Positions 772 through 61,185 of a DNA stretch of 64,000 nucleotides are shown here, piece after piece. The notes beneath the pieces are model-generated. The model searched no databases. It was not told the DNA's origin and was given only the letters and a program-made list of their open reading frames with translations. Position 1 is the first letter of the stretch, and each line of letters starts with the position of its first letter. The stretch lies in NCBI GenBank assembly GCA_016178135.1, contig JACOTW010000003.1, forward strand, positions 472 through 64,471, in the 5' to 3' direction. The translations under genes and the position numbers were made by a program. Origin of the DNA: Candidatus Saccharimonadota bacterium. GTDB taxonomy: Bacteria; Patescibacteriota; Saccharimonadia; Saccharimonadales; JACOTW01.

Positions 772-3708
772 ATGAAACGTTATAATCCTAAAGAAATCGA
801 GCCAAAGTGGCAAAAAGTTTGGGAAGATCGAAAGATCTATCAAGCCTCTGAAGATCCAGCTAAGCCTAAACGCTATGTGTTGGAATATTTTCCGTACCCC
901 AGTGGTGCGGCCATGCACGTTGGGCATGTACGCAATTACACCATAGGTGACGTTGTGGCACGTTTTTACCGGATGCGTGGCTACAATGTTATGCATCCGA
1001 TGGGTTGGGATGCATTTGGACTGCCCGCCGAAAATTACGCCATTAAAAACAACATTAGCCCCCAGCAAGCGATAGCCGAGAACACTACCAGGTTTAAGCA
1101 ACAGCTTATGCGGATGGGTTTTAGCTATGATTGGTCGCGCGAAATCAATAGCTCTGACCCCAGTTATTATAAGTGGACGCAGTGGTTTTTCAAGCTGTTG
1201 TTCGATCGCGGGCTGGCGTACCAAAAAGAATCTCCCCAGTGGTGGTGCGAAACGGACAAAACGGTATTGGCAAACGAGCAGGTAGAATCCGGCAAGTGCT
1301 GGCGTTGCGGCAATGAAGTGACCAAAAAATCTCTCAAACAATGGTTTTTCAAGATTACAGATTACGCCGATAGATTAGTAGAAGATTTGGAAGATTTGGA
1401 TTGGTCAGATGCGATCAAATCCATGCAACACAATTGGGTTGGACGGAGCAAGGGTGCCGAGATCACTTTTGCAGTAGAAACTAGCAAGCAGAAAACAGCA
1501 AAGGAAGAAAAAATCATCGTCTTTACGACTCGGGCCGATACTTTGTTTGGGGCAACCTTCATGGTACTAGCCCCCGAGCACCCATTGGTGATGAAAATTG
1601 CGAAAGATTCGCAAAAATCAGAGGTGGAAAAGTACGTTAAACAGGCCCAGGTAAAGAGCGACATTGAACGGCAAGACACTGACCGCGAGAAAACAGGTGT
1701 ATTTACCGGTGCTTATGCAATTAACCCCGCCAACAACGAGAAGATTCCAATCTGGATAGCAGACTATGTATTGTACGGTTACGGTACAGGGGCCATCATG
1801 GCTGTGCCGGCTCATGATGAACGTGACTTTGAGTTCGCCGTGAAGTTTGATCTTCCGATCCGACAGGTATTTATGGAGTCGGGAGATGACCCGGTCAATC
1901 CACCGCAAGAAAAATTCAAGATGATCAAACGCAAAACAGTTGTTGTCCACCTGAGAGATCGTTCATCCGGCAAGTATGCGTTGCTTAATTGGCACGGGAC
2001 ATTAGAGGGTATCACAACGGCGATAATGGGAGGTATTGATGAGGGCGAGACGGCAGAAAATGCCGCGCTGAGGGAGATATCAGAAGAAGCAGGGATACAT
2101 AATGCCAAGATTGTAAAAACTGCCAGATGGATAAGCGCAGCCACCTACTGTGCATCGCACAAACAAGTAAATAGAAAATCAATTTCTACGGCTGTCTTAG
2201 CAGAAGTCGATAACTTGTCAAAACAGACCGAGGTAGCTGATTATGAAAAAAAGACCCATACCCTCATCTGGGTTACAGGTGATGCCGTAGAAGAATCGCT
2301 AATACCGATTAACCAAAAGCAAATCTGGAGTTATTTACAAAACGAGACCGCACTAACAGGTGAAGGTGAAGTCATTAACTCAGGAGAGTATGATGGTCTA
2401 TTGACATCAGATATGCGGGAAAAGATCGTGGCTGATTTGGCCAAGAAAAAAGTCGGCAAGGAAGTCGTCAATTACAAAATGCGCGATTGGCTCATTAGTC
2501 GGCAACGGTATTGGGGGGCACCAATTCCTATCATTCATTGCCCTAAAGATGGTGCCGTGGCGGTGCCAGACGATCAGTTACCGGTGGAACTGCCAGAGGT
2601 CAAGAGCTATCAGCCGACTGGCGAGGGGGCTAGCGTGCTGGCTGGCGTGGAGGAATGGGTCAATACAACTTGTCCTAAATGTGGCGAACCAGCCAAAAGA
2701 GAAACAGACACCATGGACGGTTTTGCTTGCTCCAGCTGGTATTTCCTGCGTTTTGCCGATCCGCATAATGATGTAGAGCCATTTAGCCCCCAAAAAGCCA
2801 AGTTTTGGTTGCCGGTAGATGATTACATCGGTGGAGCCGAACACGCCGTGATGCATTTGCTGTATGCTCGTATGTGGACCAAGGTTATGTATGATGCTGG
2901 ACTTGTAGAATTCAAAGAACCGTTTACGGCACTCCGCAACCAAGGTATGATTTTAGCTCCTGATGGTCAAAAGATGAGCAAGTCCAAGGGTAATACTATT
3001 GAGCCAGATGAGTTATTAGATCAAGGTTATGGTGCGGATTCGGTGCGTCTCATGGAACTTTTTATAGGCCCATGGGATCAATCAGCAGCCTGGAGCGTTA
3101 AAGGTTTGGGCGGTACGTATCGTTTTTTGAATCGTGTGTGGACTATCTGTCAAGAGCATATGACAGAAGTTACTAAGCTAGAAACTGAAGATCAAACTCA
3201 AAAAGTAGAAAATCAGGATATTAGCAAAGAATTGCGACGGGCTGTTCATCAGGCAATTAAGCGGGTTAGTGTAGACTTGCACGATATGGGCTTCAATACG
3301 TCTATAGCTACGCTTATGGAATTGACTAACGAGCTATATAAACTTAAAAGAAGCTATCCGGTAGGTTCGGCTGAATGGCACGATGCTTTAAGTATTTTGT
3401 TGCAATTGTTGGCACCGTTCGCACCCCACATTACCGAGGAATTATGGCAACAGTTAGGTGGACAAACATCGATACATACCAGCTCGTGGCCATTATGGGA
3501 CGATGCCCTGTTGGTGAATAACATCATGAAAATTATTGTGCAGATCAATGGTAAGTTACGGGCTGAAATCCATATTGCCACTGGTGCAAGTGAGATACAA
3601 GTTCTAGATACCGCTAAGGCTAACGAACGAGTAGCAAGCTATCTTCAGGATCACAAAATCAAGAAATCTATATATGTACCAAATAGACTAGTGAATTTTG
3701 TAGTCTAG
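772..3708 (+). CDS. leuS: Leucyl-tRNA synthetase, 978 aa, carrying an extra Nudix-fold insertion
   Basis: N-terminal HMGH class-I motif region (PYPSGAAMHVGHVRNYTIGDV), KMSKS (QKMSKSKGN), overall LeuRS architecture. Confidence 0.95.
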   Translation: MKRYNPKEIEPKWQKVWEDRKIYQASEDPAKPKRYVLEYFPYPSGAAMHVGHVRNYTIGDVVARFYRMRGYNVMHPMGWDAFGLPAENYAIKNNISPQQAIAENTTRFKQQLMRMGFSYDWSREINSSDPSYYKWTQWFFKLLFDRGLAYQKESPQWWCETDKTVLANEQVESGKCWRCGNEVTKKSLKQWFFKITDYADRLVEDLEDLDWSDAIKSMQHNWVGRSKGAEITFAVETSKQKTAKEEKIIVFTTRADTLFGATFMVLAPEHPLVMKIAKDSQKSEVEKYVKQAQVKSDIERQDTDREKTGVFTGAYAINPANNEKIPIWIADYVLYGYGTGAIMAVPAHDERDFEFAVKFDLPIRQVFMESGDDPVNPPQEKFKMIKRKTVVVHLRDRSSGKYALLNWHGTLEGITTAIMGGIDEGETAENAALREISEEAGIHNAKIVKTARWISAATYCASHKQVNRKSISTAVLAEVDNLSKQTEVADYEKKTHTLIWVTGDAVEESLIPINQKQIWSYLQNETALTGEGEVINSGEYDGLLTSDMREKIVADLAKKKVGKEVVNYKMRDWLISRQRYWGAPIPIIHCPKDGAVAVPDDQLPVELPEVKSYQPTGEGASVLAGVEEWVNTTCPKCGEPAKRETDTMDGFACSSWYFLRFADPHNDVEPFSPQKAKFWLPVDDYIGGAEHAVMHLLYARMWTKVMYDAGLVEFKEPFTALRNQGMILAPDGQKMSKSKGNTIEPDELLDQGYGADSVRLMELFIGPWDQSAAWSVKGLGGTYRFLNRVWTICQEHMTEVTKLETEDQTQKVENQDISKELRRAVHQAIKRVSVDLHDMGFNTSIATLMELTNELYKLKRSYPVGSAEWHDALSILLQLLAPFAPHITEELWQQLGGQTSIHTSSWPLWDDALLVNNIMKIIVQINGKLRAEIHIATGASEIQVLDTAKANERVASYLQDHKIKKSIYVPNRLVNFVV
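1867..2400 (+). other. Nudix hydrolase domain inserted in-frame inside leuS (after the CP1/editing region AHDERDFEFAVKFDLPIRQV)
   Basis: Perfect Nudix box GGIDEGETAENAALREISEEAGI (GX5EX7REUXEEXGU); segment ~130 aa longer than the equivalent E. coli LeuRS linker. Confidence 0.7.
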
Positions 3709-7231: not shown

Positions 7232-7391
7232 ACTGGACCTGTCGCAAAATCGCCCGTTCCCAGGCTAAATCAGCTCGAGCTGGGAGTAGTTTGACCGAAG
7301 GAGAGGTAGCCATAGCTACATCGAGAGAAGACAGACCACTATCAGTCGATACCAGTTGGTCTGGGGATGGGGGAGCTTTGCATAAGTCCAG
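7232..7391. repeat. MITE-like palindromic repeat (orientation A), abutting the start of the 6373-7218 gene
   Basis: actggacctgtcgcaaaatcgcccgttcccaggc...ctgaaggagaggtagccatagctacatcgagagaag...ctggggatgggggagctttgcataagtccag. Confidence 0.9.
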
Positions 7392-7504: not shown

Positions 7505-7942
7505 ATGTTAGTCATTCGTATGCAGCGTACTGGCCGTAAGGGTTACGCTCAATTCCGCGTTGTAGTCCAAGACTCGCGCCGGACCCCTACTAGTGGGCGG
7601 GTTGTAGCTTTGCTCGGAAGTCTTAATCCGCACACTAAACAGGCAATTATCAATAAAGAAAAAGCCGTTTTTTATATGGAACATGGTGCTCAGCCTTCAG
7701 ATAGAGTTGTTCAGCTTTTTCAGGCAGAGGGCATAAAATTGCCCGAATGGGTTAAGGCTGCAACTATCAAAAAACGTGAAATTCGTAACTCTGAAAAATT
7801 ACGCAAAAATCGTCCAGCCGAACCGGAAAAAGAGACCTCTAGTGATCAGTCAGCTAATAAATCGGAAGAAGTTAAATCAGACGCTGTTGAGATTGAAGCC
7901 GAAGATCAATCTACCGATACACCAGCTTCCAAACCCGAATAG
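7505..7942 (+). CDS. rpsP: 30S ribosomal protein S16 with acidic/Lys-rich C-terminal extension
   Basis: MLVIRMQRTGRKGYAQFRVVVQDSRRTPTSGRVVALLGSLNP matches S16 N-terminus. Confidence 0.9.
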   Translation: MLVIRMQRTGRKGYAQFRVVVQDSRRTPTSGRVVALLGSLNPHTKQAIINKEKAVFYMEHGAQPSDRVVQLFQAEGIKLPEWVKAATIKKREIRNSEKLRKNRPAEPEKETSSDQSANKSEEVKSDAVEIEAEDQSTDTPASKPE

Positions 7943-7997: not shown

Positions 7998-8024
7998 ATG
8001 TAATGGTTGTGGTATGAAGTCTTA

Positions 8025-8065
8025 CTGGACCTGTCGCAAAACTCCCTCGTTCCCAGAGTGATTTT
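8025..8065. repeat. Solo terminal fragment of the MITE family
   Basis: tactggacctgtcgcaaaactccctcgttcccagag then breaks off. Confidence 0.6.
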
Positions 8066-8069
8066 ATAT

Positions 8070-8404
8070 TGACTGGACCTGTCGCAAAGCTCCCCCATCC
8101 CCAGACCAACTAATCTCGGCTGGTAGCGGTCTGTCTTCTCTCGATGTAGCAAAGAGCTAATTAACATCTATCTATCGGCTAAAATCTTCAGGTCTGCCAC
8201 TTTTATTCTGTTTTTTGTTTTCGGTTCGTACCGATAGGTACGACCAAAAGCCAAGAAAACAGAATAAAAATCATGCCAGCTGCTAAAGATTCGCTATCAA
8301 CGGATAGATGTTAATTAGCTCTAAGGCTACCTCTCCTTCAGGCAAACCATTCCCAAATCGAGCTGATTTAGCCTGGGAACGGGCGATTTTGCGACAGGTC
8401 CAGT
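8070..8404. repeat. MITE-like repeat (orientation B) interrupted by a nested ~170-bp palindromic insertion in its central loop
   Basis: Left part 8070-8150 and right part 8321-8404 together reconstitute a canonical copy (…gatgtagc | … | aaggctacctctccttcag…). Confidence 0.85.
8151..8320. repeat. Nested palindromic element with perfect 18-bp terminal inverted repeats (agctaattaacatctatc / gatagatgttaattagct) and imperfect long internal hairpin
   Basis: Terminal IRs exact; internal ttttattctgtttt...aaaacagaataaaa arms. Confidence 0.75.
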
Positions 8405-8447
8405 TGAGGCCAATAAATTAAAGAGACAATTTTGCATTATAACGTAC

Positions 8448-8479
8448 TTGACCAAAACCCTCGGGGGGGGGGGTAAACT
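8448..8479 (+). promoter_or_regulatory. Putative promoter with 11-G homopolymeric tract (8463-8473) between -35-like TTGACC and -10-like TAAACT: candidate slipped-strand phase-variation switch
   Basis: ttgacc aaaaccctc G11 t aaactc; spacer 20 nt as written, would be optimal (17) with G8; ~45 nt upstream of ATG 8519. Confidence 0.4.
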
Positions 8480-8518
8480 CACATATAAAGGATAAGCATA
8501 AAAAGGAATACATAGCTC

Positions 8519-10135
8519 ATGGCACGACTTCCCACTCCTGGTTCAGATAATGGTACATGGGGAGACATCCTTAATGGCTACCTCAGATCCTCCCATAATG
8601 AAGATGGTACTCTCAAGTCTGGGGTAGTTGGCGTAGGCCAACTACAAGACAACTCAGTTACCATCGCGAAACTAGACACCAGTACCAAAGCCTCACTAAT
8701 AAAGGCCGACAATGCCCTAAGTACCACAACAGCTGACGCGGATTACCTTAAGAAAATGGATGCTAGTACGACCTATGTTCCGCGGAACATCGACGGTGAG
8801 CTTGAGCTGATTTTGACCGGCAAGAACCGCACGACGTCAGCGGGTGACGAGGCGGTGCTACGCGGCAGTGATGTCGCCTCTGCGGTGCTGGACCTGTCGT
8901 CCAAGACCGGCACGGACGAAGCTCTCGGTTCGGCCTATGAGGCGGTTTCGTTCACCGTCCCTGCCGGTATCACTACGTTTGGTAGCGTGCGGCTGCGGAT
9001 CAAAAAGACCGGCACTATCGCCGACACTGGGACCTACGTGCAGGCAGCACTACACGCGGACAACGCTGGCAAGCCCGGCGCTGCGGTCGGTCTGAACAAC
9101 GCCGTGCAGCGGATCTATGGCGGACAGATCGAGACGACTTACACCGACTGCGAGTTCCTGCTAAGACTGACTGTTGCGACTCCCGGTACCCGTATGTGGG
9201 TTGTGTTGACCGTGGTGGTCAGTGGCGGCGGCACCCTCAGCATGGACAGCACTGTCGGAGTGGCATCGAGTGGCAATCTCGCCGAGAGTGCCGACGCGGT
9301 GACATGGACAAACAAAGACGTAGACGCCTACGTGCAGGTGTACGGGCAGAACGTTGCCGGAATCCAAGGTAACTCGACCAACTATGTAGCAATTCGTGGC
9401 GACTCAACCAACTACTTCGGCGGCTACTTCACTAGCAAACGCGGGACCGGCGTTTACGGCTTCTCGAACAACCACCGGGGTGTCGAGGGCAGTAGCGACC
9501 ATGGCCCGGCTGGGTATTTCGATAGCCGTGGCGGCTACGGTGTCGAGGCGGTTAGCACCAATAGCATCGCCGTCTACGGCAAGGCCGCTGGCGGCGGCGT
9601 GAAGGGTGAGAGTCCGTCGGCCTTCCCGGCGGTTCTGGGTGACAACATACTGAGCGGTCCGGGCGTGCAGGGCAAGACCGTCACGGGCATTGCCGGGCTG
9701 TTCGAGCAGTCGGGGTCTACGACCGCCGCCGTGTTGGTGTCAAAGCTCGGCACGGGCGCGACTGGCAACATGTGGGAGGGTCGCAACAGTGGCAGCACCC
9801 GTCGCGTGTCGTTCGACGTGAACGGGAATCTAAGCTTCGTTAGCAACGGCACGATCACCGCCGAGACTGGCTATCTACTACTCCAATGCTCGCAGACAAC
9901 TCAGGACATCTACTTCGGAGCAACGGGCGACACCGGCACGGTGCAGGCTCGCCGGTCAATAACGATGAGCGACGCGAAGAACCTTATTCTCGGCACTGGG
10001 ACCGGCACGAAAATCGGCACTGCGACGACGCAGAAGCTCGGCTTCTACAACGCGACGCCCATCGTGCAGCAGCCTAGGCCGACGGATGCGGCCAGTATCA
10101 TCACGCTTCTAACTACGCTCGGATTGTGCGCGTGA
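8519..10135 (+). CDS. Glycine-rich beta-repeat surface / phage-tail-fibre-like protein; chimeric base composition (low-GC 5' ~280 nt, GC-rich remainder)
   Basis: Repeated G-x-Y-G / YGxSxxxxGVEG units, no TM helices; abrupt rise in G+C from ~8800 through 10260 visible by eye. Confidence 0.45.
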   Translation: MARLPTPGSDNGTWGDILNGYLRSSHNEDGTLKSGVVGVGQLQDNSVTIAKLDTSTKASLIKADNALSTTTADADYLKKMDASTTYVPRNIDGELELILTGKNRTTSAGDEAVLRGSDVASAVLDLSSKTGTDEALGSAYEAVSFTVPAGITTFGSVRLRIKKTGTIADTGTYVQAALHADNAGKPGAAVGLNNAVQRIYGGQIETTYTDCEFLLRLTVATPGTRMWVVLTVVVSGGGTLSMDSTVGVASSGNLAESADAVTWTNKDVDAYVQVYGQNVAGIQGNSTNYVAIRGDSTNYFGGYFTSKRGTGVYGFSNNHRGVEGSSDHGPAGYFDSRGGYGVEAVSTNSIAVYGKAAGGGVKGESPSAFPAVLGDNILSGPGVQGKTVTGIAGLFEQSGSTTAAVLVSKLGTGATGNMWEGRNSGSTRRVSFDVNGNLSFVSNGTITAETGYLLLQCSQTTQDIYFGATGDTGTVQARRSITMSDAKNLILGTGTGTKIGTATTQKLGFYNATPIVQQPRPTDAASIITLLTTLGLCA

Positions 10136-10372
10136 ACACCGCTGCCCTCCTAGCGCTGATCGCCGAGCTGTACGACCGACTCATGGCATCAGAGGCTCGC
10201 GTCCGCGAGCTGGAAGAAAAACTCGTCGTTCGCTCCCAGGATGCCGACCAAACTAGCAACTAGTCGGCACCTATCCTCACTGTACGTTGCCGGAAAATTC
10301 CCACTAACAATGCGACAAAGCTGACACAAAAGTAGCGACACCCGTATACTTTCGTTTAGGTTACTAAACTAA

Positions 10373-10699
10373 ATGAAAGGAGTGTCGCTAATGCGTACAC
10401 TAACACAGTACGAAGTAGCTTGGAATATGCACCAGGCTGGCTCAACTATTGAGCAAATAACTAAGGTGGTAAGCAAGCACCGGGCCACTGTTTACCGTTG
10501 GTTAAAACAAATCAATCTGGCCGGCATCCGTAAGTTCCTTCGTCGTAAAGAAACCTGCAAGATCCGACGACCCAAAGCCCAAACTCCCGAGACAACCATC
10601 CAGAAGATCGTTGACATCCGTAATGAGTTCGGTTGGTGCGGAGCCAAGATACGCAAAGAACTAAAAGAAAACCACGGCATTAGTCTCGCCCTAAATTAA
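10373..10699 (+). mobile_element. Truncated IS481/IS3-type transposase N-terminal (HTH) fragment; IS remnant
   Basis: HRATVYRWLKQ...RRPKAQTPETTIQKIVDIRNEFGWCGAKIRKELKENHGISL resembles the HTH + 'RRPxxSPxxTP...I..LR....G...I...L' leader of IS481-family transposases; catalytic DDE part absent. Confidence 0.5.
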
Positions 10700-10888
10700 A
10701 AGGGTCTCACCCTTAACATCACCCTTAACAGGGAAGAATTTTGGTGATTAGTGCCAAATCAGTTAGAAGACAGTCTTCTACAGGAGTCTTTTAGTGTCAT
10801 ATATCAGCTAACTGATACTTTATTGTTTCTGTCTAGGAAACATTATTCATGAGCTAACGAATACTATTTGGGAAAGATTTTATATGAG

Positions 10889-10921
10889 CTAAGTCGTGTT
10901 GCTGTGAAAAAGTGCGAAAGT
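10889..10921 (+). promoter_or_regulatory. Recurring AAAAGTGCGAAAGTCCTATATAAT promoter-like box upstream of KH-protein gene
   Basis: Identical core to boxes at 705-733, 36399-36433, 45548-45583. Confidence 0.5.
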
Positions 10922-10966
10922 CCTATATAATAGTTTCTACAGCCAGTAATTGAGGAGTATCAAATC

Positions 10967-12950: not shown

Positions 12951-13111
12951 ACTGGACCTGTCGCAAAATCGCCCGTTCCCAGGGCAAATCAGCTCTAGTT
13001 TATAGTGGTTTGACTGAAGGAGAGGTAGCTTTAGCTACATCGAGAGAAGACAGACCGCTACCAGCCGAGATTAATTGGTCTGGGGATGGGGGAGCTTTGG
13101 GTAAGTCCAGT
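12951..13111. repeat. MITE-like palindromic repeat (orientation A)
   Basis: actggacctgtcgcaaaatcgcccgttcccagggcaaatcagctc...gtagctttagctac...ctggggatgggggagctttgggtaagtccagt. Confidence 0.9.
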
Positions 13112-13858: not shown

Positions 13859-14015
13859 CGACTTACCCAAAGCTCCCCCATCCCCAGACCAACTAATCTC
13901 AAGCGGTAGCGGTCTGCCTTCTCTCGATGTAGCTATGGCTACCTCTCCTTCAGTCAAACCACTATCAGCTCGAGCTGATTTGCCTTGGGAGCGGATGATT
14001 TTGTGTTAGTCCAGT
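13859..14015. repeat. MITE-like palindromic repeat (orientation B; inverted relative to 12951-13111)
   Basis: cgacttacccaaagctcccccatccccagaccaactaatctc...gatgtagctatggctacctc...ccttgggagcggatgattttgtgttagtccagt. Confidence 0.9.
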
Positions 14016-15229
14016 TTAGTGTCTAGAAATACAGAATTTGCTAGATTATCAGCACATTGAGGACAACTTTCTTCCTCGTCATCTTCCGATAGCCAACGCT
14101 TAGTGGCGATAAGCCAGGGTTGAAAGTCATGATAAGCGATGAGATCAGCCAACCGCCGTAAAATCCAGCCAATTTTTCCATAAAGTCTAATATTTCCCCA
14201 GAGAACAGCGGCCCAATACTTGCCTACCGGAGTTATATAAATAGGTTTTTTGGCCACATAAGGCAGGGGTAATTTTTTGTCGGCTAGTCGTATTAAATTG
14301 TTGGTAACTGTTACGGCATCGTGCAGGGCGGTTTGTGCCATACCGGAATATGGAGTGTCGGCGCTATCACCTATCACATAGATACCTGGCTCGGCTTGCA
14401 AATATTGGTCAACACGAACCTTTTTATTGCTCGCTAGCTGAAACTGATTTTCGGTAAAGAATGGATTGTTGGCTACGCCAGCGGTCCAAATGACCGTGTG
14501 GCTACGGATGGGTTTACTATTGATTATTAACGAATCTATGGTTTGGGCTTGAGCAGGTGTTTTGAGGTATAGTTTGATGCCGAGTTTGCGGAGTCGCCGC
14601 GTAACCTTGGCAGACAAATCCTTTGGCAGGTTTGGCAATAGTCTTGGCGCGGCCTCGACAAGGTCAATATGAAATTCTCGAGGCTTCAGGCCATGCCTTA
14701 TGCATATTTGCTTTAAATAGGCTGGTAAAGCGCCGGCTAGTTCTACACCAGTTGGTCCGCCGCCAATAATTACGTAACTAAGATCTGGTCGGTGGTCATC
14801 GAACAATTGTTTGTGTAGATGATTTTTTATCTCCTCTGCCTCCTCTAACGATTTCATACTATAGGATAGTTCGCTAAGTCCATTGATTCCGAAATAATTT
14901 GTTACCAATCCGATGCTTAAAATCAAAGCATCATATGAAAAGATTTGTCCGTTTTTTGTTTTCAGGCTATGGATTTTTCGGTCAATCAATACGACTTTAT
15001 CGCGAACAATAGTGATGCGTTTTTCATTGAATACTTCCGCAAGCGGAATACTAGAAATTTTGCGCTTACCACCAGTAGCTGTGCGATAAAGAGCTGGATG
15101 GAAGTCAAAACTATCGCTATCGCTGATTAGGGTTATGTGAAAGCGACCATCTTCCGCAAGGCGCAGAGCGGATTTTACTCCGCCAAAACCTCCCCCAACT
15201 ATTACTATTTGATGTTTTTTACTGTTCAT
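14006..15229 (-). CDS. ndh: Type II NADH:quinone oxidoreductase (NDH-2); the longer ORF-track extension to 15469 reads through an upstream repeat
   Basis: MNSKKHQIVIVGGGFGG first dinucleotide-binding motif at the proposed start, second GGGPTGVE motif, NDH-2 length ~407 aa. Confidence 0.75.
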   Translation of the reverse strand: MNSKKHQIVIVGGGFGGVKSALRLAEDGRFHITLISDSDSFDFHPALYRTATGGKRKISSIPLAEVFNEKRITIVRDKVVLIDRKIHSLKTKNGQIFSYDALILSIGLVTNYFGINGLSELSYSMKSLEEAEEIKNHLHKQLFDDHRPDLSYVIIGGGPTGVELAGALPAYLKQICIRHGLKPREFHIDLVEAAPRLLPNLPKDLSAKVTRRLRKLGIKLYLKTPAQAQTIDSLIINSKPIRSHTVIWTAGVANNPFFTENQFQLASNKKVRVDQYLQAEPGIYVIGDSADTPYSGMAQTALHDAVTVTNNLIRLADKKLPLPYVAKKPIYITPVGKYWAAVLWGNIRLYGKIGWILRRLADLIAYHDFQPWLIATKRWLSEDDEEESCPQCADNLANSVFLDTKLD

Positions 15230-22894: not shown

Positions 22895-24346
22895 ATGGAT
22901 TTTATTCGTGTAAGTCCGGTAAACTATCAATACATGAAAGTTACGATCGTTACATGCTACAAAGATCCTGATTATGTACGGGCTCGTACTTTGCGTGCGG
23001 GCTTGGCTGCCAATGCGGGAGTTGAGATGACTATCGTAAAAAACAAACATAAAAATATCTTGCGCTATCCAGAGACTATTATCCGACTAGTCATTGACCG
23101 CATTAACAATAGACCAGATGCTTATATCTTGACGTTTCGCGGTTACGAAATATTGCCTTTTTTACAGCTAATCGCTTGGTCAAAACCAATTATATTTGAT
23201 GAATTTATCAATCCGTTGGAATGGTTGGCGGAGCCACGGCACGAAAAATGGGTAGGGCTGATTCCTAAAAAGGCCCTGAAGAAGTTTTACGTCGCTTTGC
23301 TTGGGCGTTGTCGTTTTATCCTGGCTGATACTCAAGCGCACGCCGATTACAGCGTCAAATTAAGCGGTCAGCAAACAAATGTACTGGACTCACCCAAAAC
23401 CCCTCGTTCCCAGGGCGAATCAGCTCGAGCGAAAACAGTTTTATCTGAAGGAGAGGTAGCCTTAGCTACATCGAGAGAAGAAAAACCGTTTGTAGCCGAT
23501 AGAATTCGATCTGGGGATGAGGGAGTTTTCGACAGGTCCAGTAAATACTGGGCAATACCTGTCGGTACTGACGAGACGGTTTTTGATTATAAACTGGACT
23601 TACGCAAAATCGCCCGTTCCCAGGGCAAATCAGTTCGAGTTGGAAGTGGTTTTACCGAAGGAGAGGTAGCCATATCTACATTGAAAGAAGGCAGACCACT
23701 ACCAGCCGAGATTAGTTGGTCTGGGGATGGGGGAGTTTTGCGTAAGTCCAGTAAAGTTCGGGTTTTAGAAAAATACTTCCAAGTATTTTATTACGGCAAC
23801 ATGTTACCCCTTCATGGACTGGAATATGTTTTGGAAGCGGCTGTTTTATTGAAAAATAATCAAAACATAAAGTTTTTGATCGTTGGGGGCAACAGTAGAA
23901 CAGTTAAAATGATAAAAAACGCGCAACAACAAGGAGCAAAAATTAAGTATCAGAACTGGATTCCATTTGAAGAATTACCAAAAGTTATTGCCACTTCTAG
24001 TTTATGTTTAGGCGGGCCATTTGGTAAAACAAATCAAGCACAAAAAGTAATTACAGGTAAAACTTACCAGTTTTTAGCCAGCGGTGCGGCTACGTTGATT
24101 GGCAATACAGAAGCCAGTGCTTTGTTTATTGATAAGAAAAATAGCTTAGTTGTGCCGCTAGCCGATCCGCTAGCTCTAGCTACGACCATTGATTGGGCTT
24201 ATCAGCACCGGCAACAACTTCCGGCAATTGGTCAAGCCGGCAACAGGCTTTATCAGGAAAACTTTTCGGTGCGTATTATTACTGGCGAATTGTCAGCTAT
24301 TTTGACCAAACTTGCTTCTGGCATGAGTAATAATCGCCATCACTAA
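22895..24346 (+). CDS. GT-B glycosyltransferase (GT4-like) whose inter-domain region carries two in-frame MITE insertions
   Basis: C-terminal GT1/GT4-type domain (…FLASGAATLIGNTEAS…VPLADP…); ORF stays open across 23383-23752. Confidence 0.55.
   Translation: MDFIRVSPVNYQYMKVTIVTCYKDPDYVRARTLRAGLAANAGVEMTIVKNKHKNILRYPETIIRLVIDRINNRPDAYILTFRGYEILPFLQLIAWSKPIIFDEFINPLEWLAEPRHEKWVGLIPKKALKKFYVALLGRCRFILADTQAHADYSVKLSGQQTNVLDSPKTPRSQGESARAKTVLSEGEVALATSREEKPFVADRIRSGDEGVFDRSSKYWAIPVGTDETVFDYKLDLRKIARSQGKSVRVGSGFTEGEVAISTLKEGRPLPAEISWSGDGGVLRKSSKVRVLEKYFQVFYYGNMLPLHGLEYVLEAAVLLKNNQNIKFLIVGGNSRTVKMIKNAQQQGAKIKYQNWIPFEELPKVIATSSLCLGGPFGKTNQAQKVITGKTYQFLASGAATLIGNTEASALFIDKKNSLVVPLADPLALATTIDWAYQHRQQLPAIGQAGNRLYQENFSVRIITGELSAILTKLASGMSNNRHH
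23383..23542. repeat. MITE-like repeat (orientation A) inserted in-frame in the glycosyltransferase ORF
   Basis: actggactcacccaaaacccctcgttcccagggcgaatcagctcgagcgaaaacagtttt...gtagccttagctac...ctggggatgagggagttttcgacaggtccagt. Confidence 0.9.
23593..23752. repeat. MITE-like repeat (orientation A), second tandem in-frame copy in the same ORF
   Basis: actggacttacgcaaaatcgcccgttcccagggcaaatcagttcgag...gtagccatatctac...ctggggatgggggagttttgcgtaagtccagt. Confidence 0.9.
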
Positions 24347-28413: not shown

Positions 28414-28624
28414 TCATTCGACCTAAAAACTCCTCCATACCTAGACCGAATCCCATCGGTTATACCGGACTGACGAAAAACTCCCCCATCCCCAGACCAA
28501 CTAATCTCGGCTGATAGCGGTCTGTCTTCTCTCGATGTAGCTAAGGCTACCTCTCCTTCAGTCAAACCACTCCCAACTCGAGCTGATTTGCCCTGGGAAC
28601 GGGCGATTTTGCGACAGGTCCAGT
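28414..28624. repeat. Partial MITE fragment (28414-28469) followed by full MITE-like copy (orientation B, 28470-28624)
   Basis: …aaaaactcccccatccccagaccaactaatctcggctgatagcggtctg…gatgtagctaaggctacctc…cctgggaacgggcgattttgcgacaggtccagt. Confidence 0.9.
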
Positions 28625-36398: not shown

Positions 36399-36433
36399 TG
36401 TTATCAATGCAAAAGTGCGAAAGTCCTATATAA
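36399..36433 (+). promoter_or_regulatory. Recurring CTGTTATCaATGcAAAAGTGCGAAAGTCCTATATAAT promoter-like box upstream of pheS (very short leader)
   Basis: Same box as 45548-45583 over ~35 nt; TATAAT ends 11 nt before pheS ATG. Confidence 0.5.
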
Positions 36434-36443
36434 TACATACCAA

Positions 36444-37481
36444 ATGAGTTATCAGAATAATAAAATTACGGAAGTTGCCGAGGCACTAAAAAAACGCTTT
36501 GAGGAGCTTCAGATAAAATCTGACATCTTAAAAGCTATTGAGCTCAAAGCTCTGTACGCAGAAATACCTAGTCTGGCCGCAGAAGAACGGGCGATGTTTG
36601 GTAAAGAGATCAATGACCTAAAAGCAGAGCTAGAGGACATGGTGGCAGCTCATAAAAATCAAGCAGAAGAGCTACCGTCAATTGATGTCACGGCACCATT
36701 TGACACTAATCTATCCCCAGAGAAGCGGCCAGCATTACTTGGTCCAGAGCTGGGTAGCAAACACCCCTTGATGACTGAAATGGAACTGGTTTTGGACATC
36801 TTCTATCGCATGGGCTTCAATGCTATAGAATCACGCCAGTTAGATGATGATTTTCACATGTTTGGTAGTCTAAATTTCCCAGAAGGTCATCCAGCACGCG
36901 ATGACTACGATACATTTATGACAACCGAAGGCCTGATTGCCCCCGCTCATACAAGCACTATGCAGAACCGTGTGCTCAAAAAATACATTGGAAATCTAGA
37001 AAAGGACGGCCCGATTGCTGTTATTATTCCTGGTCGAGTATTTAGGAACGAAGATCTTGATGCTCGCCACGAGCATACCTTTTATCAGCTCGAAGGTGTT
37101 TATGTAGGCAAAGGTATCCATGCCGGGAACCTAATCGCGACTCTCAAAACATTTCTGCAAGAGTATTACCAGAAAGAACTAGATGTAAAAACCCAACCGT
37201 TTTACTTTCCATTTACAGAGCCAAGTTTTGAATTTGCGCTTAGTTGTCCATTTTGTGACAAAAAAGGCTGCCATGTATGTAGCTACAGCGGCTGGATTGA
37301 GCTACTCGGCTGCGGCATGATTCACCCGAACGTGCTGAAGATGGCCGGCATCGACCCTAACACCTACACCGGATTTGCCTGGGGTTGTGGTATCGACCGA
37401 TTGGTGATGATGAAATATGACATCGAAGATATCCGGCACTTTGAGTCCGGCAAGTTAGAATTCCTGAGGCAATTCTCATGA
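36444..37481 (+). CDS. pheS: Phenylalanyl-tRNA synthetase alpha subunit
   Basis: Class II motifs (FRNEDLDARHEHTFYQLEG, FTEPSFEF, GFAWGCGIDRLVM). Confidence 0.95.
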   Translation: MSYQNNKITEVAEALKKRFEELQIKSDILKAIELKALYAEIPSLAAEERAMFGKEINDLKAELEDMVAAHKNQAEELPSIDVTAPFDTNLSPEKRPALLGPELGSKHPLMTEMELVLDIFYRMGFNAIESRQLDDDFHMFGSLNFPEGHPARDDYDTFMTTEGLIAPAHTSTMQNRVLKKYIGNLEKDGPIAVIIPGRVFRNEDLDARHEHTFYQLEGVYVGKGIHAGNLIATLKTFLQEYYQKELDVKTQPFYFPFTEPSFEFALSCPFCDKKGCHVCSYSGWIELLGCGMIHPNVLKMAGIDPNTYTGFAWGCGIDRLVMMKYDIEDIRHFESGKLEFLRQFS

Positions 37482-45547: not shown

Positions 45548-45583
45548 GTTATCTATGTAAAAGTGCGAAAGTTCTATATAAAA
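45548..45583 (+). promoter_or_regulatory. Recurring CTGTTATCtATGtAAAAGTGCGAAAGTTCTATATAAA promoter-like box upstream of glutaredoxin-like gene
   Basis: Near-identical to 36399-36433 box. Confidence 0.5.
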
Positions 45584-45627: not shown

Positions 45628-45876
45628 ATGGTTAAAAATATCACAGTTTTCACTACTAACACTTGCGCCTACTGTGGCATGGTTAAGAAGTGGCTTGGTG
45701 CCAAAGGCTTTACTTATGAGGAAGTTAATCTAGATCAAAACCCCGATCGACAACAAGAAGCGTTTGAAATGAGTGGTGCTTTGTCTGTACCAGTAACCAT
45801 AATAACAAAACATGACGATAGCCGTGAAGTAGTCATAGGTTACAATTTGGCCAAACTAGCTCCCGCAATAGCCTAA
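45628..45876 (+). CDS. Glutaredoxin-like protein (NrdH/Grx family, CxxC = CAYC)
   Basis: ITVFTTNTCAYCGMVKKWL thioredoxin-fold N-terminus; RBS aaagggtaa; the ORF-track start 45328 is upstream read-through. Confidence 0.75.
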   Translation: MVKNITVFTTNTCAYCGMVKKWLGAKGFTYEEVNLDQNPDRQQEAFEMSGALSVPVTIITKHDDSREVVIGYNLAKLAPAIA

Positions 45877-60882: not shown

Positions 60883-60942
60883 TGTGACAGACATAAAATC
60901 CAAACTCTAAAAGGTATCTTGGTAGACACTTATTATATAGGC

Positions 60943-61102
60943 TGGACCTGTCGCAAAACTCCTCCATCCCCAGATCGAATTATATCGGCTGCAAACAGTT
61001 TTTCTTCTCTCAATGTAGCTACGGCTACCTCTCCGCCAGATAAAACTGTTTTCGCTCGAGATAATTCACTCTGGGAACGGACGATTTTGCGACAGGTCCA
61101 GT
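60943..61102. repeat. MITE-like palindromic repeat (orientation B)
   Basis: ctggacctgtcgcaaaactcctccatccccagatcgaattatatcggctgcaaacag…caatgtagctacggctacctc…ctgggaacggacgattttgcgacaggtccagt. Confidence 0.9.
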
Positions 61103-61185
61103 AGACATATCAGATCGAATTATATATCGGGTATACTTACGGAATTTCGGAAGTCCTGTACAGCTCTGTTATACTAGGAGAACGT

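Follow-up and report, generated by a model that had tools for sequence, protein, structure and literature searches.

Poly-G tracts of variable length between promoter-like hexamers upstream of receptor-binding-like genes in Saccharibacteria: a candidate slipped-strand switch

This study focused on an uninterrupted run of 11 G residues that lies between two promoter-like hexamers upstream of a 538-aa gene in the chromosome of a Candidatus Saccharibacteria metagenome-assembled genome (MAG), a groundwater species. The window, i.e., the whole 64,000-nt stretch of this chromosome that was analysed, carries one copy of the arrangement (locus A), and two paralogs in the same MAG (loci B and C) carry it as well, so that TTGACC-9 nt-G(n)-TAnnnT is present at three paralogous loci. 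We consider it reasonably likely, from the comparison of these loci, that the tract is a promoter-spacer slipped-strand switch of the porA/fetA/vlp type, that it drives the 538-aa gene, and that switches of this kind are present at at least three paralogs. In the proposed mechanism, a sigma-70-type promoter (-35 TTGACC, -10 TAAACT) would drive the gene, with the G tract forming the length-variable core of its spacer. Slipped-strand mispairing during replication would lead to the gain or loss of G residues, changing the distance between the two hexamers as well as their rotational phasing, and transcription would in this way be switched or graded (transcriptional phase variation or 'volume control'). 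Since each paralog has its own tract, cells could express different combinations of the proteins.

Like other CPR bacteria, Saccharibacteria live as obligate episymbionts and have genomes of around 1 Mb, and how they recognize and switch hosts is little understood. Contingency loci are a hallmark of small-genome, host-adapted pathogens such as Neisseria, Campylobacter, Haemophilus and Mycoplasma. No report of such loci in Saccharibacteria or CPR bacteria was found in a literature search and, as far as that search shows, a slippage-driven promoter switch of the kind suggested here would be previously undescribed in them. The mechanism itself is textbook, and any novelty would concern the organisms in which it acts and the genes under its control, the way it works being already familiar. 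If true, it would explain in concrete and testable terms how Saccharibacteria/CPR could achieve phenotypic heterogeneity and hedge their bets on host range, with poly-G promoter switches acting on a multicopy, receptor-binding-like gene family fed by horizontal transfer.

The coordinates of the tract, its flanking elements and the downstream gene are given in Table 1, together with the tract-length alleles of the three loci. A sequence-only reading made beforehand had given the string as TTGACC, 9 nt, G11, a single t and TAAACT; its hexamers, its G11 and its coordinates of 8448-8479 stand, but the additional t is not present, as TAAACT abuts the tract directly. The 20-nt spacer between TTGACC and TAAACT with G11, and the position about 45 nt upstream of ATG 8519, were both borne out when the coordinates were re-read, the ATG lying 45 nt past the end of the tract. 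That reading had also noticed no other G-run of 8 or more in the window, which proved to be true for both G and C. The runners-up in the 64 kb are a single C7 and five G6, and a first-order Markov model gives an expectation of only ~0.007 G runs of 11 or more for the window. An in-frame TAG at 8513-8515 places the tract outside the coding region of the downstream gene. A minus-strand ORF that spans the tract (8327-8482) was rejected because neither locus B nor locus C conserves its part upstream of CTTGACC. An artefact of poly-G sequencing and a chimeric join were likewise dismissed, the junction being reproduced in independent assemblies and at three loci.

Table 1. Elements of the tract-bearing region of the window, and tract-length alleles at loci A, B and C (window coordinates, except where a source is named)
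Feature	Position or source	Strand	Sequence or remark	Tract	Spacer
538-aa gene, NCBI HY003_01905	8519..10135	+	intact ORF		
High-GC segment, gene body	8700..10350	+	GC profile; 58-65% GC vs ~43% in flanks		
5' module common to paralogs A and B (promoter, tract, 5'UTR, first ~31 codons)	8447..8612	+	alignment with L003		
-35-like hexamer	8448..8453	+	TTGACC; same at loci A, B and C		
Fixed spacer part	8454..8462	+	AAAACCCTC; 9 nt at loci A, B and C		
G11 homopolymer, variable spacer part	8463..8473	+	GGGGGGGGGGG; sole G/C run >=8 in window	G11	
-10-like hexamer, abutting tract	8474..8479	+	TAAACT; key T, A and final T present		
Second -10-like hexamer, possible P2	8484..8489	+	TATAAA; family-type promoter position in relatives		
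Ribosome-binding site	8502..8508	+	AAAGGAA; 11 nt before ATG; direct reading		
Nested MITE-like palindromic repeat	8022..8404	.	ends 43 nt before TTGACC; not part of switch		
Locus A, 538-aa gene between rpsP and khpA	window		TTGACC-AAAACCCTC-G(n)-TAAACT	G11	20 nt
Locus A ortholog, P0033	L090, GCA_040960765.1		TTGACC-AAAACCCAC-G(n)-TAAACT	G9	18 nt
Locus B, P0019, HY003_03715, after tsf-mazEF	L003, same MAG		promoter sequence as in window	G9	18 nt
Locus C, P0041, HY003_03115, after alaS	L097, same MAG		TTGACC-AACTCTCCA-G(n)-TATTAT	G9	18 nt
Locus C, same gene	L098, Logan SRR12113388		promoter as in L097	G10	19 nt

Alignment of the five sequences in Table 1 showed TTGACC, and the TA and final T of the -10 hexamer, to be invariant. 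The sister strain L090 differs from the window by one substitution in the spacer prefix (AAAACCCAC versus AAAACCCTC). Loci A and B share a 5' module of about 165 nt at ~94% identity, which begins at CTTGACC (C8447), one base before the hexamer, and no homology was found between locus A and locus B (L003) upstream of that point. Locus C differs from A and B in its spacer prefix, its -10 hexamer and its UTR, which is 16 nt longer, while the layout and the 18-nt spacing have been kept.

Tract length varies within loci, giving spacers of 18 nt for G9, 19 nt for G10 and 20 nt for G11; a G8 allele, with the optimal 17-nt spacer, was not among the alleles seen. At locus A, the tract is the sole indel between the window and L090 in ~7.4 kb (2,974 + 1,622 + 2,835 aligned nt), the three blocks aligned with GCA_040960765.1 being 98.8-99.9% identical and carrying 42 substitutions. 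At locus C, L097 and L098 have no mismatches in 1,666 nt apart from G9 versus G10, a one-base difference that could be a miscall, given that every sequence compared at either locus is a consensus assembled from short metagenome reads, which can get the length of a homopolymer wrong. Comparing tract lengths among strains had been proposed with the original observation, and the pairs of alleles (G11 and G9 at locus A, G9 and G10 at locus C) differ as a switch predicts. Among the contingency repeats of Neisseria, homopolymers of at least 8 nt, and G/C tracts especially, dominate the strong candidates (PMC5084427), and length polymorphism with otherwise identical flanks is a criterion by which such loci are nominated (PMC5084427). 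The tract described here combines three properties of promoter-spacer switches, being a homopolymer long enough to slip, situated at the sequence level between recognizable -35 and -10 elements, and polymorphic in length with conserved flanks. The recurrence of TTGACC-9 nt-G(n)-TAnnnT at three paralogs, along with this polymorphism, lends support to the idea of promoter-spacer phase variation with which the analysis began.

The pattern TTGACN-N20-TANNNT is no rarer in the window than expected by chance (about 3 per spacer length in shuffles), so the promoter reading is built on comparative evidence and not on consensus alone. No spacer length was enriched in a consensus-only promoter scan of the whole window, and two scans with the exact promoter-module pattern, one of them relaxed, found no match in genome and metagenome contig collections without this species. 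TAAACT is a weak -10, agreeing with the consensus at four of six positions. What argues for the two hexamers being functional partners is the invariance of TTGACC and TAnnnT, the constant 9-nt prefix, and the spacing of 18 nt that is found with G9 at all three loci. By comparison, the distance from TTGACC to the -10-like element farther downstream varies, being 28-30 nt at loci A and B and 44 nt at locus C, which indicates that TATAAA is not the partner of TTGACC and also argues that the tract is the spacer of TTGACC/TAnnnT. The distance from the end of TAAACT to the ATG, 40 nt, agrees with those of the promoter-like sites of the neighbouring genes, 42 nt for rpsP and 36 nt for khpA, and the site of rpsP, adjacent to the locus A gene, is TTGACA-17-TAGAAT. 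We infer that TTGACC/TAnnnT may be an active promoter, that the length of the tract may alter expression, and that switching could be frequent and reversible within the population. If so, G9 (18 nt), the commonest allele, is probably the expressing state, and the G11 copy of the window, with its 20-nt spacer, is probably expressed weakly, at a low level or not at all (OFF).

The tract could also act in the promoter region in a manner other than as a -35/-10 spacer, which we regard as very unlikely. It might part an activator or UP-like site (TTGACC) from TATAAA at 8484-8489, as does the poly-C tract of Bordetella fim, or it might be a protein-binding or structure-forming G-rich element. In two relatives (L054 and L070), the -10-like elements sit just before a leader, AAAGGAT...AAAAGGAAT, homologous to that of the 538-aa gene, and at locus C a family-type CTTATGTTATTAA element is found downstream of the tract, both of which favour such a role, as does a 7-mer enriched upstream of family genes (described below) that suggests a dedicated regulator. 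With TATAAA at the family-type promoter position, the 538-aa gene may be transcribed independently of the tract. On the other hand, TTGACC stands at differing distances from the downstream -10-like element but, with G9, 18 nt from the abutting hexamer at each of the three loci, and TATAAA lacks a TG extension and a -35 of its own. It is also conceivable, if rather unlikely, that the tract is a hypermutable but neutral homopolymer that was inherited with the duplicated 5' module and slips without regulatory consequence. The A/B module has been recently duplicated or converted, so that two of the three occurrences are not independent, and a tract is absent from all 80 of the family members of other species that were surveyed (the best 80 of 253). 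Even so, the diverged locus C has kept an uninterrupted G9 that abuts TAnnnT and begins 9 nt past an invariant TTGACC. A long homopolymer without function would be expected to shrink or to become interrupted, and the lack of any other G/C run of at least 8 nt in the 64-kb window also speaks against neutrality.

The remaining explanation is that the true tract is of one fixed length and that the differences are sequencing or assembly miscalls, to which we assign a low probability. Every source is an Illumina metagenome assembly, a single G separates L097 from L098, and two contigs, L091 and L092, end at the 3' edge of the tract, pointing to trouble for the assembler at that place. Set against this, the G11 and G9 of locus A differ by 2 nt between independent MAGs, which the 42 substitutions show to be different strains, and G9 is reproduced in three independent contigs. 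Reads that are ambiguous at the tract would, moreover, themselves be expected from a heterogeneous population. Breaks in two further contigs, L001 and L004, are fully accounted for by a shared 31-mer repeat and not by noise at the tract. These Logan contigs (k=31) start 37 nt before the ATG because of the repeat shared between A and B, the break coinciding with the first 31-mer that separates A from B (an a/c SNP), and they were rejected as a sign of tract heterogeneity. The Logan contigs L091 (SRR25508618) and L092 (SRR25508638), also k=31, have as their first base the one just 3' of the tract (TAAACTCACA...), a start that simple length heterogeneity would not yield.

The 538-aa gene carries an N-terminal MARLPxPGSDxGTWG module, a high-GC body and a C-terminal GTGTKIGTATxQKLGFYNATP module. 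It is intact in both strains, differs from its counterpart in L090 by seven synonymous changes and one non-synonymous change, and is under purifying selection, which fits reversible switching and not gene decay. Residues 77-518 are 74% identical to P0002, a protein encoded on a contig of 70% GC (L002) directly after an ORF that resembles virion structural proteins of Bacillus siphophages; both this closest homolog and a relative, P0004, are located in phage-like gene rows. The gene body (58-65% GC) stands in a genome of 43% GC, and paralog B is also GC-rich (55-60%). The GC-rich bodies and the match on a 70% GC contig point to horizontal acquisition of the variable domains, the probable donors being high-GC organisms or their phages. 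The gene is a chimera, its N-terminal module being conserved and its high-GC body resembling those of phage receptor-binding proteins.

The first ~35 residues (MARLPTPGSDNGTWGDILNGYL...) recur as a cap in 253 loci of the GTDB representative genomes (one per species), and nearly all of the best 80 of these 253 come from Saccharibacteria, in which one genome often holds many copies. A few Streptomyces phage proteins have the cap as well, and proteins that share the modules carry BppU_N, phage-tail-repeat (PTR), beta-helix or GDSL domains. When the 66-aa N-terminus was used as a homolog query, only one candidate was returned. Searches with the 538-aa protein found no match in Pfam, PHROG, NCBIfam or PDB sequences, nor, at full length, in IMG/VR or by tblastn against 50,697 phage records, and the C-terminal module had no match to phages. 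An AlphaFold2 model (31-sequence alignment) had a pLDDT of 46 and was unusable. The protein has no visible signal peptide, and there is no phage tail module around the gene, which stands alone between rpsP and khpA. The label 'surface/tail-fibre-like' given to it in the sequence-only reading is borne out only in part, by the similarity of its modules and by the phage surroundings of its closest homolog, and no Pfam, PHROG or PDB match backs it. Its receptor-binding-like resemblance consists of the shared modules and that context, with no family or structure match.

Two other features recur near genes of this family. Of 80 regions upstream of family genes (L010-L089, 120 nt), 22 contain the 7-mer CATAAGC/GCTTATG, against 17 of 1,609 control windows, an enrichment of ~26-fold. 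The 7-mer often takes the form GCTTATGCTAtaaT and overlaps an extended -10, and the copy in the window lies at 8491-8499 (GATAAGCAT). It is probably a cis-regulatory element specific to the MARLPxPGSDxGTWG family. Together with the family-type downstream promoter, this enrichment implies that the tract-bearing promoter may be one of two. The second feature is tatC, often with tatA, which lies no more than 1.5 kb from the family gene in 8 of the 80 surveyed loci and in three more contexts (the linked loci are L008, L017, L026, L058, L062, L072, L078, L087, L089, L099/L100 and L101). For a gene assumed to be present once per genome of ~1 Mb, this linkage is far above chance. The conserved N-terminus has no visible twin-arginine signal; the tatA/tatC neighbourhood hints at a cellular, exported role for these proteins.

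Several known systems invite comparison. The vlp lipoprotein family of Mycoplasma hyorhinis reportedly has a poly-A tract in the promoter spacer of each member, work that is attributed to Yogev et al. in 1991 and to Citti and Wise in 1995. It is the closest analogue in layout, being a multigene family of a reduced-genome, host-dependent bacterium in which a conserved 5' block (promoter and N-terminal coding sequence) with its own homopolymer in each member is joined to a divergent 3' part, as seems to be the case here. The layout of vlp permits combinatorial ON/OFF expression. The Saccharibacteria loci differ from it in having poly-G instead of poly-A, in being dispersed beside housekeeping genes (rpsP, tsf-mazEF, alaS) where the vlp genes are clustered, and in that Vlp are lipoproteins with signal peptides, none being visible in the 538-aa protein. 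Expression of the surface-structure genes fim2 and fim3 of Bordetella pertussis is said to depend on the length of a poly-C tract, as described by Willems et al. in 1990. That too is a G/C homopolymer in a promoter region, but the fim tract parts an activator (BvgA) site from the -10, whereas here a -35-like hexamer is at sigma-70 distance with G9. General context on fim2/fim3 is given in PMC1891110.

A passage of PMC5320596, which cites Carson 2000 and van der Ende 1995, states that fetA and porA are controlled by a poly-C or poly-G tract placed between the -35 and the -10. The present tract resembles those of Neisseria meningitidis porA (poly-G) and of Neisseria fetA/frpB and opc (poly-C) in being an uninterrupted G/C homopolymer, 9-14 nt long, between -35 and -10, with a length that differs between strains and sets the spacing, and in Neisseria hence, as that passage has it, the transcription of a surface protein (PMC5320596). 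The differences are that it occurs in Saccharibacteria/CPR and not in Proteobacteria, that the gene it may regulate does not encode an outer-membrane protein, that it occupies the 3' half of its spacer right up to the -10, and that length-dependent expression and within-strain switching are predictions here. Among proteins, phage tail fibres and receptor-binding proteins with exchangeable C-terminal modules are similar in that the cap is shared with Streptomyces phage proteins, the body is linked to phages, and relatives carry the domains listed above; the 538-aa gene is unlike them in having no phage genes around it and no family match, and in belonging to a family often found beside tatA/tatC.

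Beyond this species, G/C runs of at least 7 nt were absent from the 120 nt preceding the start codon in all 80 family genes surveyed (the best 80 of 253 loci), which makes the tract a lineage-specific feature. In the 329 kb of fetched loci there were two other G/C runs of at least 8 nt, one of them in an unrelated Anaerolineae locus and the other in L076, a contig of Candidatus Saccharimonas sp. (JBATSI010000013.1). At positions 57-91 of L076, TTGACA-TCAC-G9-TGAT-TAAATG has a spacer of 17, and a type IV pilin-like gene (..GFTIVELLIVIVVIAILAAI..) starts 16 nt after this promoter-like site. Its G9 is an independent poly-G tract in a promoter-like context, in another species of Saccharibacteria and ahead of a surface-structure gene.

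A broader proposal is that of a multi-locus, slippage-driven 'phasome', in which at least three dispersed genes of the family would have their own poly-G switches, providing clonal host-range bet-hedging, and poly-G switches would recur in the phylum. This is put forward tentatively, as something that we think somewhat doubtful. The family would be specific to Saccharibacteria and actinophages, with a conserved cap and interchangeable, horizontally acquired, receptor-binding-like bodies, and a clonal population of the episymbiont would express different combinations of host-binding proteins. The independent G9 of the L076 pilin gene would make poly-G promoter switches recurrent for surface genes in the phylum.

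The surroundings of the 538-aa gene are rich in repeats and insertions. The gene is within a ~3 kb insertion between rpsP (7505-7942) and khpA-trmD (10967 onward). An imperfectly palindromic intergenic repeat of ~165 bp (MITE/REP-like) has at least 12 copies in the 64 kb, including those at 7232-7391, 8022-8404, 12951-13111, 13868-14019, 23383-23547, 23592-23755, 28470-28624 and 60933-61105. For one copy, folding gives a long hairpin (z = -3.2), and the repeat matches no Rfam family. A second palindromic element, which contains a perfect 20-nt inverted repeat, is inserted at 8160-8320 and interrupts the copy that precedes the tract. Downstream of the gene, a 610-bp insertion (10286-10897) that is absent from the sister strain L090 carries a truncated IS630/IS481-like HTH ORF (10373-10699), and the motif AAAAGGGTCTCACCCTTAACAGGGAAGAATTTT is found again in L003, ahead of paralog B.

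Elsewhere in the window, a conserved box of ~23 nt (AAAGTGCGAAAGTCCTATATAAT) that ends in a consensus -10 occurs on the plus strand at 721-735, 10917-10931, 36420-36434 and 45568-45582. It lies upstream of at least four genes, these being leuS, khpA and two ORFs, one at 36444 and the other with its start near 45643. The leucyl-tRNA synthetase ORF (772-3708, plus strand) has a match to a NUDIX domain at aa 392-506 (E = 1.8e-8), inserted behind the editing domain.
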